DNA of 63,923 nt, counting the filler, from Platydemus manokwari (Eukaryota): assembly GCA_037951405.1 (NCBI GenBank). It is 6 parts of 6 records of this genome, joined end to end, with 100 filler letters (N's around TTAATTAATTAA, not from the genome) between each part and the next. Parts side by side here need not be neighbours in the genome. Positions count along the whole stretch, not along the records: positions 1 to 9,521 come from JBBMOY011237542.1; 5 more parts are not named here. One strand, given 5' to 3'. Positions within the stretch are counted from its first letter, which is position 1. Each line of letters begins with the position of its first letter. This document shows positions 1-9,521 of the stretch, piece by piece. A program made the translations under genes and the position numbers. The notes beneath the pieces are model-generated. The model did not search any database, was not told where the DNA came from, and saw nothing but the letters and a program-made list of their open reading frames with translations.

Positions 1-3000
1 AATTACTAAAATTACTAATTAATTTCAAATATTTTTTTATACTTCGAAATCGTTAAATATAGTTACATCCTTAATTCATCAATTCACTATATATGATATT
101 TCCTACGATATCACTCAAAAATTTATAAGTTTTAGATTTCGAATTGAAAGTCAAGAAAATCTAAAACATTTCAATATTAAGTTGATTCTGTTTCAATCTT
201 TCAATTTTTTAGTCTACAGTTCTTATTGTTCTGTTAAAAGTTTATCGGAGCTTTGACACAATCTCCAGTTCTTCAAACGTGATTAATATAAAAATAAATT
301 GTGTTTCTTACTAAAAACAGCTGATTGTGAATTGATAGTTATAATTTTAATTTATGACGCCCAAAATAACATATTCCTAGTTATTGGTGAATCTATGAAG
401 CTTCGTTGTATGTACTTAGTCTGTATATTATTTCTATTAATTTTTAATGTTGATGTTTCTGAAACTTTGACTTACACCAACATTGATTTAACAATTTACC
501 AGAAACGAATATTAACAAATACATTCGACAAATGAAAAAAATCAATTGAGTATCTTTTCTCCTGATAAAAATTGCAGATATAAGAGAACTCCTTAGAGAA
601 ATAAAACAAACACTTTGAAATTCTTGATACACAATATAATCAAAACGAAAAAAAATTTTATTTTCCAAATATCTTTTAGAAATTTTAGATTTATTTCTTG
701 GAAATAATTTTTCAAATAAATTATATCAAGATAACAATAACCATTTGTCAAAATATCTGTTGTCTTGTAGCTATGGTGTCATTGCTAATTATATTTCAAA
801 TGACGCAAAGTAATAATTACTGATCAATTAAAGATTTTATTTAAATTGCTTTGTGAAATTTTCACATAATTTAATAACTAAACCAATTAAAAATCAATTT
901 TAAAAATTAATTTCATTTTTTTATTGATTTTTAAGTGTTTCACTCAAATTTGAATGAAAATATTATTTATTTCATTTCATAAAATCATCTAAATTTTTGT
1001 AATTTTTTACTGTAGTGTAAGGCACTTTTACTTTAAAGTGTTCTTAAGTACAAAACGCCCAACGTTTGCTTTTATCACCGTTATAACGTCTTTAAAATTT
1101 AATATAAAATTTCAAGGGTTAATGATTATTTTTGTGAAACCAGAGTTGTTTAAGTGGATATGATTATCTTTTGTTTATAAATTCACAAGATTATTTTCAG
1201 ACTTTATGAATTTTCCAAATTTTCCAAATTTTCCTCAATGAACAACTTTGTAAAATATTCAAGTCCCTAAAATATTCCTAAAGTCCCTATGTATGTTTCT
1301 CAAAATTTTAAGAATGATTAAGGAGCGTATTTTAGTTTCTTGTCAGTTTAAATATAAATCATAATGTTTTTCTTGGCTATTTTCATTGTTAAATTCTCAA
1401 TAAATTATTTAAACAATAAATACCTTATTCCCATCTTTCCATTTTATTGTAAGGTTTTCGCTTTTTTTTAAAGTTCAGTTTGCTAATGGCAGTGACCAAG
1501 ATCTGAGCATATCAAGTATAAGATTATCGACCAAAATCCAAGCCAGACAATTCAAAACCTTTGAATCTCTGACAAATTGAAGCAATTCAATTCACTCTCT
1601 GAAGCCAAAACCAGTGCAATCATCTGGATTTAGAGATGTTGCTCTTCGGATCTTTGCAAATACAGTAGTTAACACTATTAGAAACATTACTGAATTACAT
1701 TGACTTTGAATCCTCTACCGATATTAAGAACAGTGCCCAGTAGCCACTGATTTTGACTCTTCAGCGTTACAGAAAGTTGTTATTTAAATTTGGATAGATA
1801 CTGAAGTCATATTTTTCACTGATATTTATGGAAAAACTAAACCCTATGAAATCTTTAGACTAGTCCTCATAAATTAAGACATAACGATTATGTCTTTATA
1901 TTGTAAATATTTTACGGTTTATATGCTCTATCCTTTTTTAGTTTCTTTTCTTTCTGCACGAAATGAACAATACTTTATCATATTATGGTGCTGCTATATG
2001 GTCAGTGTATCATTCAGATTATGACTTACTTCTGGTTATGGATAACAAATTTTACATCACATGATGTGCACTATATAACTTTAAATTACTTGTTATAATA
2101 GTTTTGCCAAAGTTATCTAATTATGTCCTGCCTGATGTCAGTTTTGTTGTAGGAGAGGCTTAACCATAGATATAATGGAGCAATGTTTAAAATCAGAAGT
2201 TCTTTATTCATTGATTAGGTAGTAAGATTCTAATAAAAAGAAATGTTATATTTAGTGACAAGAAGTAATTAGTTTAATCAATTAATCAACCGATTATATA
2301 GCACTGATATCACTAACCACAAATGAACACCCACCTTATTTAAATATTAAAAGGCTAACATTATCCGAAAATAATTTGAAATAAAAGATTTAAATCAACT
2401 TCAAACGTAATTTAAAGTAAAAAACATTTATCTTTTATGTTTTTATTAAATTAAAGTTATTTTTTAAATTAAAATTCTTAATATGAATCAATTATCTATA
2501 ATTTGTTTAAGTTTGTTTAAGTGTTAAATTTTTAATGGTGTGAAAATTTTTAAAATTGAAGAACGTCAATTGAAAGATCAAAGCAGCATTACTTCAAAAT
2601 TTGACATATTTTGAATTACATCTCAACTAATCTGGTTGATTTATAATACTTGAAAATTTTATTGTTTATTGAATGATTACAAAACGTTTTGGAATTTAAT
2701 TGCTTATCAATGCATTGCTTTTGATTCTCATTTGTTGTTTGACATTTACGGTCATGGTATTGTATAATTAATAATCAAAGATAATTTTTATCACATTGAA
2801 TCTAAATTTTAAATGTGTTAAATGGTTCTTTGAATGTTTAATTGGATCTGTATTGTTATAATGCGGAGTTCAAATTGTGAAATAATGTTTCGATATTTTA
2901 TTTTGTAAACTGTGACTAAATGTGGGTGTGCATTTTTCAATGATTATCAGATGAGCATTACTTATAGCATTGGTTACTGATTCACTTAACAAGCTTTATT

Positions 3001-5849
3001 TGAATTTAGGCTGCTAATAGTATTTCAATTTTTTACAGAAACCACGGTTCCCCAAGTTGGTATACAAAGGAATTTAAATTCCATGTAATTGATTATTTGA
3101 TATAATATGTGCTAGATGCCAATTGTTCACAAATAGTATAAATTTATTGGTTTTTTAAAAAGCCTGTTAAATGAATATCTTTGAAGAAATAGCAAATAAT
3201 GATTTTGGTGTTCATCTGATAATCTAAAGATTCCCCTATTTAATAAAATTTATAAATCAATATTAAGCTAGTTTTCTAAAATGTCAGTTTGATCATGATT
3301 TGAAAAAAACTATTTCGGTATGTATTAGAAACAAATCATAAAAATTGAGTAATATGTACGAATCGACGTAGATCTTAGATTTCAACGCTTTGTATTTTCG
3401 GAACTATTATAACATCTCACTAGTGATAAGGAAGGAGATAAGGATTAATAAAATAACATTTGGAATGCAATAATAAGAAAATTATAATGTTCCCACGAGT
3501 GTAATGGAAAACTAAATAGATACAATTGAAGATTTATTTTTTAAGGTATAGGTTTGAAAGTAGAACAAGTTAATCAAGTTATGAATCCTCCTACAACTAT
3601 CTAATTTTTCGAGCCTTTTATTGGTAGATCTCTCGGACCTGATAAGGTAGAAGATATTTTGGAGTTCTTGTCGTTAATGCTTCAAAAACAGGGAGATTAA
3701 CTTTTGACCACATGATGAAATCTAAACACTGGATTCTAGTGATAATATTTGTAACCAAAAATCAATCCTAGATGTGACATGGATGATGAATAAACAAACT
3801 TCCTCAATAATCCAAGTAGAAATACTTCTACGGAACAAAGGGGATCTGAAAGAAATCCAGCCTACAAATACCAGAAATGCAATTTTGAGGAAAGCAAGCC
3901 ACTAGTATTTGGATATATGCTGTACATCAGTTATAACTTTCAAATGATAAGAATACATCATGACAATAACGGAAATATCAAAAAAGGCGATCTTCGAACA
4001 TGATTGGAAGTTCAAGAGGAGGGAACAACAAGGGAATTATTAACAATAAGGATTACAGAGGTTTTGTAGAGAAAGAATGCCAATTTAAGGAATCCAAATT
4101 AACGATAAATCTATAACTAATAAATTATAGAAATATCCACGATATTCCTGATTGATGTAAAATAACTCATGTACAAACTTCCTTTAATGGTCGAAACTGC
4201 TCAAAAAATATAGAAAAATACTCATATTTCTAAAATGCGATAAAAAAGCCGTCCGACTGGACTGTAGAACTGTTCACTTTTGTTGTAAGAGTTCTAGATA
4301 CAATATTAAATAATCTAGGAATATTTAAGAATAGATAAACAAAATAGCTTTTGCATGAAAAAAGTCGAATATAAATGCGAGCTATCTGCATGGAAGTTCC
4401 ACGTGGGAAAGAGAACAACAACAAAGGCAGCTTAAAAATAGTGGGGGAGGATATCCTAGACAACATCAACTGGAAGGCGGAAACATAATTTATTGAAACG
4501 TTGAATTGATTGTATGACTGAATGAAACAGCCATGTAAAACCAATATTTTATGTATGGATGTCTTGATTATCAATGTTATGAATAAATATTTTTATATCA
4601 ATGTTATGATTTTATTTTTTATCCATTGACTCTTAAAAATAAATATTTTAATAGTCAGTAGCACCGGTACCTGGCAACACCTCTTACAAAAAGAATTATA
4701 GGTACAAATAACATTTTTTTTCAGTTAAAAAATGGCTATGGATGGTTTTGACAAACAAAAGAATAAACGAATTGAGAAAAAGCATTGCTTATAGGAACAA
4801 ATTAAATAAGGAAGATGACGAAAAATAATATTCAAAAATTCTATTAAATCAAGGTATCGCCAAATTTTCAGAACCATTTTTCGTACTTGTTAATTAAAAT
4901 TTGGAAAAAAATACATTTAGCAGATAAGGTTATAAAAATATAAAAACTATTAAAATAAACAAAATAATAAATAAAACTTCAAATGTTAATTCAAAGAAAC
5001 ATATTCAAGAAAATATATCACAACCTACATCCATAAATCCTGATGAATTTAACATAAATGTGGAAATATTATATTCAAATTTAATAATTCCGTATTTAGA
5101 AGAAAAGATATCAGAGGGAATAGGTTTTCAATTAATAAAAGTCAACGTACATGGATTCTTTATTGTTGAATTAAATTGATAATGCTTATTTAAATCCAAC
5201 CGATGAAGGTAATATTCCATTAACGGGTAATTTAATGGGTTTAATACACGGAGATTTAGATAATATCCAAACAAAATCTGAGGATATTAAAATTTATTTT
5301 ATAGTTCTGAAAAAAGCAGGAATCCTATGAGAACATTTCGGTAGCATAAATTACATAAAATATTTGAGAGATGTGTTTCTAGAGGATACAAATAATGATT
5401 TAACAGCTATTGAAGACAAACAGGGTAATGATCATATTGATTAAAAGAAATTTAAACGAAAACCAACATAGTTAAACACTGATAAATTTAACAAAATCAT
5501 TATTTATTAGTAAGTTGCATCATTTCCGATTTTTATCAAATAATGATAGATAACACGAAACTTCAATTGTCAATGATTGGCCTTTGAGGAAATCAATTTT
5601 TTATGTATAAATTAAATAATTAAAAATATTTACAATTAGAAAATTAAATCAGTATTCCGTTAACAAAGAAGAATATCGTTGATTATTTGAAAACTCTGAA
5701 GAAAATGGGAATTTCTGAACAAGATTTAACAAAATATAGTTATCTTAGAATTTTGAGTGAGGAACAAGACATAAGGCATAAAGTATACAAAAAGTGTTAA
5801 GCTATATTAAATTGGTGATGTCATCCAAGTTGATAGTAGTAAAAACCTA

Positions 5850-6260
5850 ATATATAATGTAAAAATAGAACCTGATAAAGCAACATTAAAATAAAAACTG
5901 ATTACAAAAGAAAATATAAAATTGATTACTTTAGGATCTGTATTAGGATTTGAAAATAATATGGAATTCATTTATCAGAAAATAAAAAAAAAATCCCTGA
6001 TGTTACATTAATAAATGCTGAATGTTCCATAATTGATGAAGTTATGTATCTCTAGAAAGAACATACATTATTTTAGTTTTCCATCTAATAATGTTCTTTC
6101 AAGTTATTTATATATTAAAGAAGTAAATGAAATAATTTATTTTCTGATATTTAACAAAGGTATTAATGAGCCTACTTTTAAAATAACAGAGTAAAACTGA
6201 AATTTAATATATTTTAACGATGAAGAAATATCATTGAGACTACATCTTAAACAAGTAGAA
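5850..6260 (+). pseudogene. Degenerate Polinton/adintovirus-like minor capsid (penton) gene, C-terminal part
   Basis: Hand translation across frameshifts and stops: EPDKATLK*...ITLGSVLGFEN...PDVTLINAECSII...HYFSFPSNNVLSSYLYIKEVNEIIYF...FKITE*N*NLIYFNDEEISLRLHLKQV. This resembles the Polinton penton C-terminal pattern (..LGF..V..I.V.C.I...F.....GY.....IY.....ITDQ.G..IDF.GE.I.IRLHL). Confidence 0.65.
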
Positions 6261-6279
6261 TTTATTTTTCTTTATAAAT

Positions 6280-6465
6280 ATGTATTTAACAAATTTTCTA
6301 GCGAAATATGGAATTAATAAGACTACTGATTTTTATTTAAAATATATTGCGGGTAATTTAAATTTAGATGTTAAATACCAATGAGAAATAAACTGACTAC
6401 AGACAATAAAAATATATTATGATGAATTTGAAAACAACAAAAGACAAATGTTCCATTTCTGGTGA
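6280..6465 (+). pseudogene. Degenerate Polinton-type adenain (cysteine protease), N-terminal part
   Basis: ATG at 6280 directly after the penton remnant: MYLTNFLAKYGINKTTDFYLKYIAGNLNLDVKY/MRNKLTTDNKN/IMMNLKTTKDKCS (two frameshifts). It resembles the T.NF.L...A..L......MRDEL.....I.NL......GSHW pattern; the catalytic HW is not intact. Confidence 0.5.
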
Positions 6466-6558
6466 CCATGTGAGGTCTGATTGGGTATCAATATAAGCAA
6501 AATTCACAATATATATGTGTGTGTGTTTTCACCGGTTTTTAAATTTCACTAAATAAAA

Positions 6559-7250
6559 ATGTTTATGGTTTATAAATTTGTTAATAATTTAGTATATAAT
6601 ATAGGGCATGCTCAAGAAATGATTAATGCCAGAGAAAGGACTTATTATAGAAAATATATCAATTAGGATAGGAATTATATGAACGGGTATTATGGATTAA
6701 ATGATAGCAGAACTGTAAACTTAGGTGATCTAAAGAATAAAACAAATTCAGTAAATCAGAATATCGTTGAAATTAAAAAATATTTTGAAAATAAGTTTAG
6801 ACCAGAATTAAGTAAAATAACAAAGAAAATATTGATAAGCCTGATTCATTATGCAAATCAATAAATACAATGATACAGGATAATACAAAATAAATGAAAC
6901 AGAAATAAAATTGATCTCTGAAAAACATAGACATTTGAAATTCATAAAAAACGGAAACAAAATTTGTGCAGATGATGAAGAAAAAATTAAATGTTCAATT
7001 TGGGAGACAATTAGAGAAAAAAGTTAAATAATCTCCTTAAAAATAGAAAAGATATCAAAACATTGAGAGAAACTTTTAATGATTTAGGGAAGATAATGAA
7101 TGTTTGTGCTACAAATGAGGATGGAGATAAATAAACATATGTATATTTAAAGAAAAAAGGAAATAATATTAATTGTTATTCAACCGGAACTATGATTTTT
7201 AATGATAGTCCACCTAAAAATTTTGAAAAATATCTTACGTTAAATTAGTT
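6559..7250 (+). pseudogene. Degenerate Polinton fiber-like ORF
   Basis: ORF 6679-6864 contains GYYGLNDSRTVNLGDLKNKTNSVNQNIV, similar to the Y.L.NKRL.NL.DP....DAVN..YV stalk repeat. It is followed by broken Lys/Glu-rich coding-like sequence and is co-oriented with the penton and protease remnants. Confidence 0.4.
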
Positions 7251-9521
7251 ATTATACCCCATAAATCGATATTGTTTTTTAGAATATTATGATAACTAAA
7301 GTTATATCGGAGTTAGTGGTAATTTAACTTCTGAGTCTAAATTTCTCAAAGTAGATGCGTTTAATAGATGGAAGGAATTTTGTTTTTGTTTTTATTTCTT
7401 TTAAATATACTGAAGGAAAAGGAAGTCGTATTGGAATAAGAGATGAAACTATTTTCTTAGGTAAGAGAGCTACAGGTTGACGAGAAAAATCTGGCCCATT
7501 ACCCTCCACTGTGTGAGGTAATAAAGTAGTACAAATCCCACTGTACTGTGATTCTTCATACGATTGAGGTTGTTTCTACAGAAAATTTAGATTGTTCTCA
7601 AAGTTCTAGAAATATTCCTTACAAATACCAAGATATTATCCTTGCTACTTCTGCCTCAAATAATCAACATTTTGTTCAACTCTAGCATCACCGTCAAAGT
7701 GACTGTGCTTCTTAATGTGAAGGATTGGTTAGACCTACAAGTTAGAAGAAATTCCCTTGAGGCTTTCAAGCTCCAGAAAAAAACAGAAGGCAGTGGTCAA
7801 ACTCACCAGGCACTGATGTAATTTTTAGTGACTTAAAACTGAGGCATCTTCGAGGTTTGATATATTCAAAGAGATAACACATCCTTTACATCGATCCCAG
7901 AGACCTTGAGGAAAATAGAAAACGATGAACACGATCTTCGGATGACCAATTATGGCCCTCAATTTTGAGGCTTTAAGTTCTCCAGATTTATTTTCTTTAG
8001 CTCAACCAAATTCAATGAACTGGACCGTGTCTCAATATTGCATATCATTCAGCCTCAATGTCTTCAATGACGATCTATGGGAAAACTGTACTCGAGCCCC
8101 TGGGAAAACAATGTGCAGTTACCTGAATTCCAAGAGAACTTGACTTTGTCAATTCCGAGCCTATGGCAAAAGAGAAATTGATAAATCTTTCGATCGCCAC
8201 TACTTTCGAGTCCTCGAGTAAAACAGAGAATGATGATACCAAGTTGAAGATCTTAGTTCGCAATTCAATGCTGAGAGGAATTCTCAATCCTACTTCTAAA
8301 ATGTAGGTCAACTAGTTTGCTCTTCACTCATGTGATTATTTTCCTTTATTCGAGTAGTTTGATATTAATGCCATGCTAGTTTCCCGGAACAAACCTTGTG
8401 ATCATGCAACTTTTTATCTCCTGATTGATAGAACCTCAAACTAACGGCAATGTTTTATTTAATATTATAAAATTTGCTTAAGACTTGGAATAATGGTTGG
8501 AGTTCAAATCCCAACTAAATTTTATTTTCTCTAAAATAAAAAGCGTCTCAACCGATGGAGAAAAGGCTGCTTATCACGAAACTGTTGTCAAAATTTAAAT
8601 CGGAATGATATTCGAAAAGATATTCGAGTTTAAAGTTTAAAAAATTTAAAATAGTCAAAAATAATGAAAGTCTACTTATAATAGTCAGTAGTTTATTTAT
8701 TAACTAATAATAAAATATAAACCGATGTTATTTACTGTGGTCACATCTTACCAGATTTTTTTTGTTTATTTATTACTATTTATTGGTGTAACCAGTTCGT
8801 TTTGTATTCCGTTAATTTTAATTTTTAATTTTTTATATTAGGAACACATTTTATGGGCATTTTAACACGTTAGCCGATTGCCTGCTTCCGGACATTTTGT
8901 TGCGATAATTCTAATTTACAGTTCTTTCTCAACTTTTAAATATTTAAACGAATATAATTTTGATAACAGATTTGAAGTTCATATTCCATTTTCTGTCGAA
9001 ATCTAACAAAATATCAATGAAAAACGTAGTTTAAAAATATGGAATCCTCAACGTTTTTTTTTACTAAAATCTATGGAAAGTTGTAAAGAAAATATTTAAT
9101 AAAAATTTTATAATCTTACACACAAATCTAAATTTAGTTTTTAAAATAATGTTACTAGTGCCATAATCATTTATATGCATTTTTTAAACATTAAAATGGT
9201 TTTCGTAAATTTATTTGTTTATTCAAGTATCTGGACTAAAGCATGAGAGTGGTGATATATTTTTCTGCAAGACATGTGGTCATTAACTGATGGTGTTTAC
9301 TTCTATGATGATGAAATTGAGAATGACGATATTGATGACTAGTTCATTAATGATGTTTCTTCATTCTCTGCCGGTATTTGTCTTTCAGTTATTGTGATTG
9401 ATTGATTGATTTATTATTTTCAAGTACTATTTTGATACTGTTAATTTTTTATGTGATATATGTTCTATATTTTCGAACTATTATTATTATTATGAATTAA
9501 TTATAATCTTTAAATATCTAT

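Follow-up and report, generated by a model that had tools for sequence, protein, structure and literature searches.

What left the 2.6 kb of co-oriented, closely packed coding-like DNA, riddled with stops and frameshifts, that lies in a contig of Platydemus manokwari (assembly GCA_037951405.1)? The window analysed comprises 63,923 nucleotides joined from six parts, and the stretch studied is its positions 1-9521, one entire contig (JBBMOY011237542.1). A preliminary description had taken the tract for a decayed Polinton- or adintovirus-like virion module, with a penton, an adenain-type protease and fiber-like stalk repeats, that the track of open reading frames (ORFs) barely shows. This reading was borne out: the penton, the protease and the fiber-like gene each found support, and sister copies are linked to the hallmark genes of the family. 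The stretch is almost certainly a dead, internally deleted copy of a Polinton/Maverick (adintovirus-like) virion module, the last gene of which likely encoded an attachment fiber with a variable tip.

The longest stop-free plus-strand frame in 4680-7260 has 83 codons, so the ORF track indeed barely reveals the module. The motifs described earlier were all found on the plus strand in the order given, with the penton end at 6180-6257, an ATG at 6280, protease pieces at 6322-6360, 6381-6395 and 6416-6439 in three different frames, and a stalk motif at 6691-6756. Gene identities were mostly obtained through the natural open frames of sister copies rather than the window's own broken frames, by searching the assembly of 911 Mb in 2 million contigs. 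At the DNA level the module is a dispersed repeat with at least 60 non-self matches at 66-87% identity (40 of 1653 candidates scored), and the protein searches gave at least 218 matches for the penton and at least 152 for the fiber (150 scored of 1112 and of 1278 candidates, respectively); all these counts are lower bounds. Natural frames of sister copies matched the window with E-values of 5e-26 for the penton, 1e-17 and 7e-20 for the fiber and 2e-9 for the first gene, here called ORF-U, and further tblastn searches gave the penton and protease values listed in Table 1. On these values the similarity of the window to the sister-copy genes is far above chance.

The Polinton homology spans about 4690 to 7464. 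The end proposed in the preliminary description, 7260, fell short. The right boundary is sharp, as 35 of the 39 copy matches with an end between 7400 and 7700 stop exactly at 7464. All four gene remnants bear stops or frame changes. Many copy matches begin at 5779-5782 and others stop at 5770-5771; at this junction a deletion of about 2 kb, a size estimated from the gene spacing in the sister copy L017, has taken the major capsid protein (MCP) gene and a pX-like gene entirely, together with the 3' end of ORF-U before them and the initial third of the penton after them. ORF-U in the window has two internal repeats, several stops or frame changes and an internal deletion of about 100 bp near 5680, and its 3' end is lost. 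The protease lacks about 75-270 bp, including the catalytic Asp and Cys region, and the position of the catalytic His is altered; only 61 bp separate it from the fiber, a gap that in 30 of the 33 locus rows measures 136-333 bp. The fiber head retains the first 90 or so of about 205 residues. Both ends, the inverted repeats, the integrase, ATPase and pPolB genes and the major capsid gene are missing from the copy. In addition, the window penton differs from other copies by a median of 0.41 at synonymous and 0.29 at non-synonymous sites. The copy is inert, and no protein of the module could be made from it.

Table 1. Features of the studied contig, the Polinton-derived segment first and its neighbours last.
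Feature	Position	Strand	Basis or remark
ORF-U remnant, gene preceding the major capsid gene	4690..5771	+	tblastn of natural copies at 4718-5767
Deletion junction	5772..5779		copy-match boundaries
Penton, residues ~95-257 of natural copy	5780..6257	+	tblastn E 4e-35; several stops, frame changes
Adenain-type cysteine protease, 5' half, three frames	6274..6500	+	tblastn E 6e-14; alignment
Fiber-like gene, cut off at 7464	6520..7464	+	tblastn; stalk profile; head fold
Left neighbour, non-Polinton: 3' remnant of non-LTR (long terminal repeat) retrotransposon (endonuclease end and tail)	3609..4600	+	separate repeat family
Right neighbour, non-Polinton: repeat, likely 3' end and tail of non-LTR retrotransposon	7485..8543	+	separate repeat family, higher GC

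Related copies linked to pPolB, integrase, A32 ATPase, major capsid and terminal inverted repeats were found in the assembly, as the preliminary description had anticipated. The MCP of sister copies matches PF21738 (E 6e-7), the A32 ATPase matches PF04665 (Pox_A32; E 2e-6 in L074), and the rve integrase matches PF00665 (E 1e-10 and 8e-8), sharing a contig with the penton in 3 of 115 loci. A pPolB gene (PF03175, E 9e-9) was found in L115, on a contig also bearing penton, protease and fiber. The pX-like ORF matches PF05829 at E 0.023 and shows pX-like motifs by eye, and an ORF in L017 without a Pfam match is taken by us, from motifs recognised by eye, to be PLA2-like. The gene order of the family was assembled from overlapping contigs, using 24 marker frames and a tally of 115 contig-level loci. 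MCP precedes penton in 19 of 19 cases, penton precedes protease in 32 of 32 and protease precedes fiber in 31 of 31; the order of fiber and pPolB holds in 20 of 22, and the ATPase lies upstream of ORF-U in only three of six loci. Downstream of the fiber, 30 loci out of 30 have a hydrophobic ORF of 259 residues, for which no Pfam match was found. One strand carries ATPase, ORF-U, MCP, pX-like gene, penton, protease, fiber and the hydrophobic (membrane-type) ORF; the opposite strand carries the integrase and the PLA2-like ORF before the ATPase, and pPolB after the hydrophobic ORF. An inverted repeat of about 320 bp is common to one left end and several right ends, with the terminus AGTAGT in six of the nine ends shown, AGTAGA in two and an eroded terminus in one.

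Several other features of the family and its relatives were observed. Six copies (L018, L024, L021, L119, L145 and L165) have differing internal deletions, some with the inverted repeat kept, as expected of non-autonomous derivatives. A tract of short tandem repeats lies between the integrase/PLA2-like genes and the ATPase (L074:4707-5053, L122, L168, L026 and L017:4922-5173). The N-terminal region of pPolB in L129:707-1783 contains an Endonuclease VII-like domain (E 4e-6). L117 belongs to a different Polinton-like family; one of its strands holds both an open pPolB-like frame of 617 residues and an rve integrase of 364 residues.

The penton assignment was upheld by tblastn and by the fold of a natural open copy. 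The model of the natural frame (261 residues; predicted local distance difference test, pLDDT, 80) has as its top Foldseek matches the mavirus penton (E 5e-10), the Sputnik penton (7.5e-7) and adenovirus penton bases. By VIA the model scored a Z of 14.1 (root-mean-square deviation, RMSD, 11.1; 235 aligned) and, against a PBCV-1 capsid chain, a Z of 12.5 (RMSD 3.0; 129 aligned). Its Atlas neighbours, at a score of 0.98, are unnamed and mostly viral clusters, and its database relatives number eight proteins; in viral_contigs, 51 pattern matches yielded no confirmed penton. By this fold, the penton is a single jelly-roll minor capsid protein. The adenain-type protease was confirmed through a chain of profiles. 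The His, Asp and Gln-Cys motifs are conserved in the family alignment, and comparison with PF00770-positive ORFs of the same genome gave an hhalign probability of 96.5% (E 9e-10) with the His, Asp, Gln and Cys aligned. With a profile built from eight PF00770-positive ORFs, seven of the ten pieces from the family were recovered at E<=1e-4; of 250 shuffles, the best reached E 0.37. PF00770-positive proteases of other families also occur in the assembly. Sequence profiles of the penton, protease and fiber head gave chance matches only against the PDB.

Some observations weigh against the assignment to a Polinton virion module. None of the fetched contigs, which are short, held both ends of one element, and no complete element was seen among them. 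Searching 18 frames of the window against Pfam, with stops read as X, gave nothing relevant. The family protease has no direct Pfam or PDB match, PF00770 (Peptidase_C5) being reached via intermediates only.

The segment 4990-5450 had been suggested to be the remnant of a major capsid gene or of some other viral gene. The former part did not hold; the segment belongs to a separate gene, ORF-U, which lies directly upstream of MCP in 10 of the 11 loci holding both. A capsid origin was rejected mainly by position, and no similarity was found over the part of MCP compared, its last 170 residues (E 0.28). ORF-U matched no family in Pfam or NCBIfam and nothing in the Atlas, and no homolog was found among 7674 candidates; by motif we presume a likeness to Polinton PZ. 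The central repeat of ORF-U is present in one or two copies depending on the family member, and comparison with L130 places two in the window.

The last gene, of about 420 residues, comprises a single stalk motif, then a coiled coil and then a beta-rich head of about 205 residues. A fiber-like gene had been foreseen correctly, with stalk repeats that proved to be the single stalk motif, followed by the coiled coil and a lectin-like head. This motif matches PHROG 2710, a tail fiber family, in all three natural copies that hold it (E 4e-9, 1e-8 and 1e-10), and YadA_stalk weakly (E 0.015-0.13). Three fold searches with the head model led to ConA/LamG-like domains (E about 1e-4), including phage tailspike and phage ConA proteins; against a cyanophage tailspike the Z was 7.8 (RMSD 4.4; 178 aligned; model pLDDT 65). 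Botulinum and tetanus binding domains also appear in the fold lists, and a toxin role was rejected, as they share a ConA-like subdomain. The fiber is predicted, with moderate support from the model, to end in a ConA/LamG lectin-like head. Together these features make it likely that the product of the gene was an attachment fiber mounted on the penton, with a lectin-like tip that differs greatly from copy to copy. We consider it rather unlikely that the gene instead encoded some other protein, structural or interacting with the host, that combines a coiled coil with a beta-sandwich domain. Such a protein would accord with the weak head model (pLDDT 65), with Z scores of 7-8, a range that the tool rates as common, and with the head profile having just four database relatives, all unnamed, and no Pfam LamG match among 47 head pieces. 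It sits poorly with the agreement of the three fold searches, the match of the stalk motif to phage tail fibers (down to E 1e-10) and the fixed place of the gene in the virion module; moreover, LamG fibers are described in the available account of Polinton-like viruses (PMC12220804).

The head loops are hypervariable between copies. In an otherwise conserved frame, four short stretches differ strongly (47 aligned pieces; 56 copies), with a nucleotide distance of 0.38-0.52 in the loops versus 0.17 in the framework. Loop and framework distances correlate at 0.08-0.15, compared with 0.26-0.68 for 16 windows along the penton. Among pairs that share loop 1, 8 of 17 are wholly different in loop 2, and the reverse case was met in 5 of 14. 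A fast site class takes up 10-15% of head codons versus about 1% in the penton. By counting, pN/pS is 1.46 (1.12-1.78) in the most variable head columns versus about 1 in four other genes. Model M2a outperformed M1a in the head, the comparison giving a 2dlnL (twice the log-likelihood difference) of 154 for the head, 16 for the penton, 17 for the coil, 5 for the protease, and 0 for both MCP and the transmembrane (TM) gene.

The leading explanation, to which we give somewhat less than an even chance, is the exchange of short loops between co-existing variants. Positive selection on the loops comes second, as a possible account that we hold more doubtful, and relaxed constraint combined with misalignment is improbable. 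A fast class is present in the coiled coil too (3-8%), and the low loop-framework correlation could arise from saturation or misalignment as well. In the head, a site class that is uniformly faster at synonymous and non-synonymous sites outperforms M2a (lnL -10493.5 vs -10516.4), and therefore positive selection on the head is not shown.

How did the family spread? Across five genes with 14-50 copies each, omega was 0.09-0.26 on the internal branches and rose to 0.24-0.35 on the terminal ones, values biased downwards because the copies used were the best-scoring matches, and omega=1 was rejected in all five. The copy trees are star-like, with 77-86% of their length terminal. The copies diverged mostly under purifying selection. 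The low terminal omega despite the star-like trees suggests that numerous lineages were under functional constraint as they evolved, up to the time they inserted, and the copies probably come from many separate active lineages. That the family instead moved as an intracellular transposon from few master copies, with capsid and fiber genes as passengers and the differences between copies due to neutral decay, we regard as unlikely. Every copy seen is broken or partial, stops occupy about 0.7-1.6% of aligned codons, and the star-like shape would fit as well; Maverick particles, according to the portion of the literature drawn on, have never been seen (PMC8097293). Neutral decay is opposed by the terminal omega and by the rejection of neutrality in all five genes, and uniform decay would not concentrate variation in a few head loops.

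For the preferred reading, a copy of a Polinton virion module, we propose the following course by analogy with Polinton and adenovirus biology. The ancestor would have replicated by its protein-primed pPolB. The A32 ATPase would have packaged the genome into a capsid built of double jelly-roll protein and bearing pentons at its vertices, the protease would have matured the particle and the vertex fiber may have attached it to cells, whereupon the integrase could insert the element into a chromosome. After insertion, this copy would have decayed, lost about 2 kb and both ends, and come to be flanked by retrotransposon remnants. The functional scheme draws on parts of PMC4028283 and PMC8502044, and the arrangement of fiber on penton on that of adenovirus as cited in PMC12220804. 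We tentatively suggest, as a possibility short of a favoured one, that a whole population of an animal Polinton, which travelled as particles from cell to cell or from host to host, has left its record in the genome, with many independent integrations, conserved capsid genes and lectin-type tips with shuffled loops like those of adenovirus and phage fibers. If true, this would point indirectly to a phase outside the cell and to an arms race over receptors in an invertebrate, an animal that has no antibodies. A diverse transmissible virus would be expected to leave such a trace, with virion genes under purifying selection up to the terminal branches and loop variation largely at the predicted tip. 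The family is of some interest for the question whether animal Polintons form infectious particles. As a fossil the copy in the window is ordinary, and the fiber variation at the family level is the part worth following.

It is very unlikely that the stretch came from another animal's DNA, prey or contaminant, in a mixed assembly: at least five different COX1 genes are present, but the penton and the fiber each have more than 1100 first-look candidates, copies sit among host-type genes with TRAF domains and other high-copy repeats, and the GC content is in line with other parts of the window. Of the five COX1 genes read, four use the invertebrate code and one the flatworm code, the latter with AAA at conserved Asn sites and ATA at Ile sites. 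The main genome is therefore likely that of a flatworm, with DNA of other animals present alongside it, and this mix suggests a predator with prey DNA. The COX1 genes in the invertebrate code (L205-L209 set) are presumably three snail-like and one arthropod-like.

The neighbours of the module belong to other repeat families. The left flank family has 48 non-self matches, and its relative L041 carries RVT_1 (E 3e-9); its endonuclease, from the motifs, is taken by us to be of the restriction-like type. A first guess that this flank was Penelope-like was dropped. For the right flank, no Pfam match was found in the six frames tried, and we presume its type from motifs in L043. Elsewhere, TRAF-type genes (RING, zf-TRAF, MATH) occur in long open frames beside Polinton copies (L018:3842-5861 and L023:929-2351), and L008:3-566 holds a cysteine-rich ORF that starts with a signal-like stretch and contains an internal repeat; no convincing Pfam family was found for it.

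Capsid-coding Polintons, adintovirus fibers, LamG fibers in protist Polinton-like viruses and flatworm Polintons are already in print, as far as the sections of the papers cited below extend. Planarian Polintons are known and are silenced by PIWI-interacting RNAs (piRNAs; PMC8532177), and Orthopolintovirales insertions have been reported in Rhabditophora (10.1101/2025.04.19.649669); the portions of these two accounts drawn on here give neither gene-level anatomy nor fiber variation. The literature searched, which did not cover subscription papers, yielded no description of animal Polintons with hypervariable loops in the fiber. The family shares with the Polintons/Mavericks, as treated in parts of PMC4028283 and PMC8097293, pPolB, the rve integrase, the A32 ATPase, the double jelly-roll major capsid, a single jelly-roll penton one gene from the capsid gene, an adenovirus-like protease and AGTAGT inverted repeats, AGTAGT being the end motif described for Mavericks (PMC8097293). 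The mostly degraded state of the copies is likewise shared, 96% of vertebrate Maverick loci being degraded (PMC8097293). Vertebrate Polintons, as there described, have a two-module layout, from which the gene order here differs, with the virion genes and ATPase on one strand and integrase and pPolB on the other; the core genes set out in those passages include no fiber gene with variable loops, which the present family has.

Adintoviruses, in the corresponding parts of PMC8502044, show the same association with animals and the same hexon, penton, adenain, packaging ATPase, integrase and PolB, and the label 'Fiber' occurs in their S2 maps, as a fiber-like gene does in this family. In the portion of the supplement covered, no flatworm name was found. 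The virion module of alpha-class adintoviruses has PLA2X, a PLA2 domain fused to pX, and that of the beta class has GasderminX and cupiennin-like genes; here a putative PLA2-like ORF is a neighbour of the integrase, on the strand opposite to the virion genes, and stands apart from the pX-like ORF (both read from motifs by eye). The predicted head would resemble the ConA-like lectin domains in the fibers of protist Polinton-like viruses, which are proposed to set host recognition in the text consulted (PMC12220804). Those fibers are long and modular, with LamG arrays and S74 chaperones, whereas the fiber here is about 420 residues long and has a single stalk motif, a coiled coil and a single head. 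Unlike the protist Polinton-like viruses with LamG fibers in that account, the family described here is an animal Polinton with pPolB and the rve integrase.

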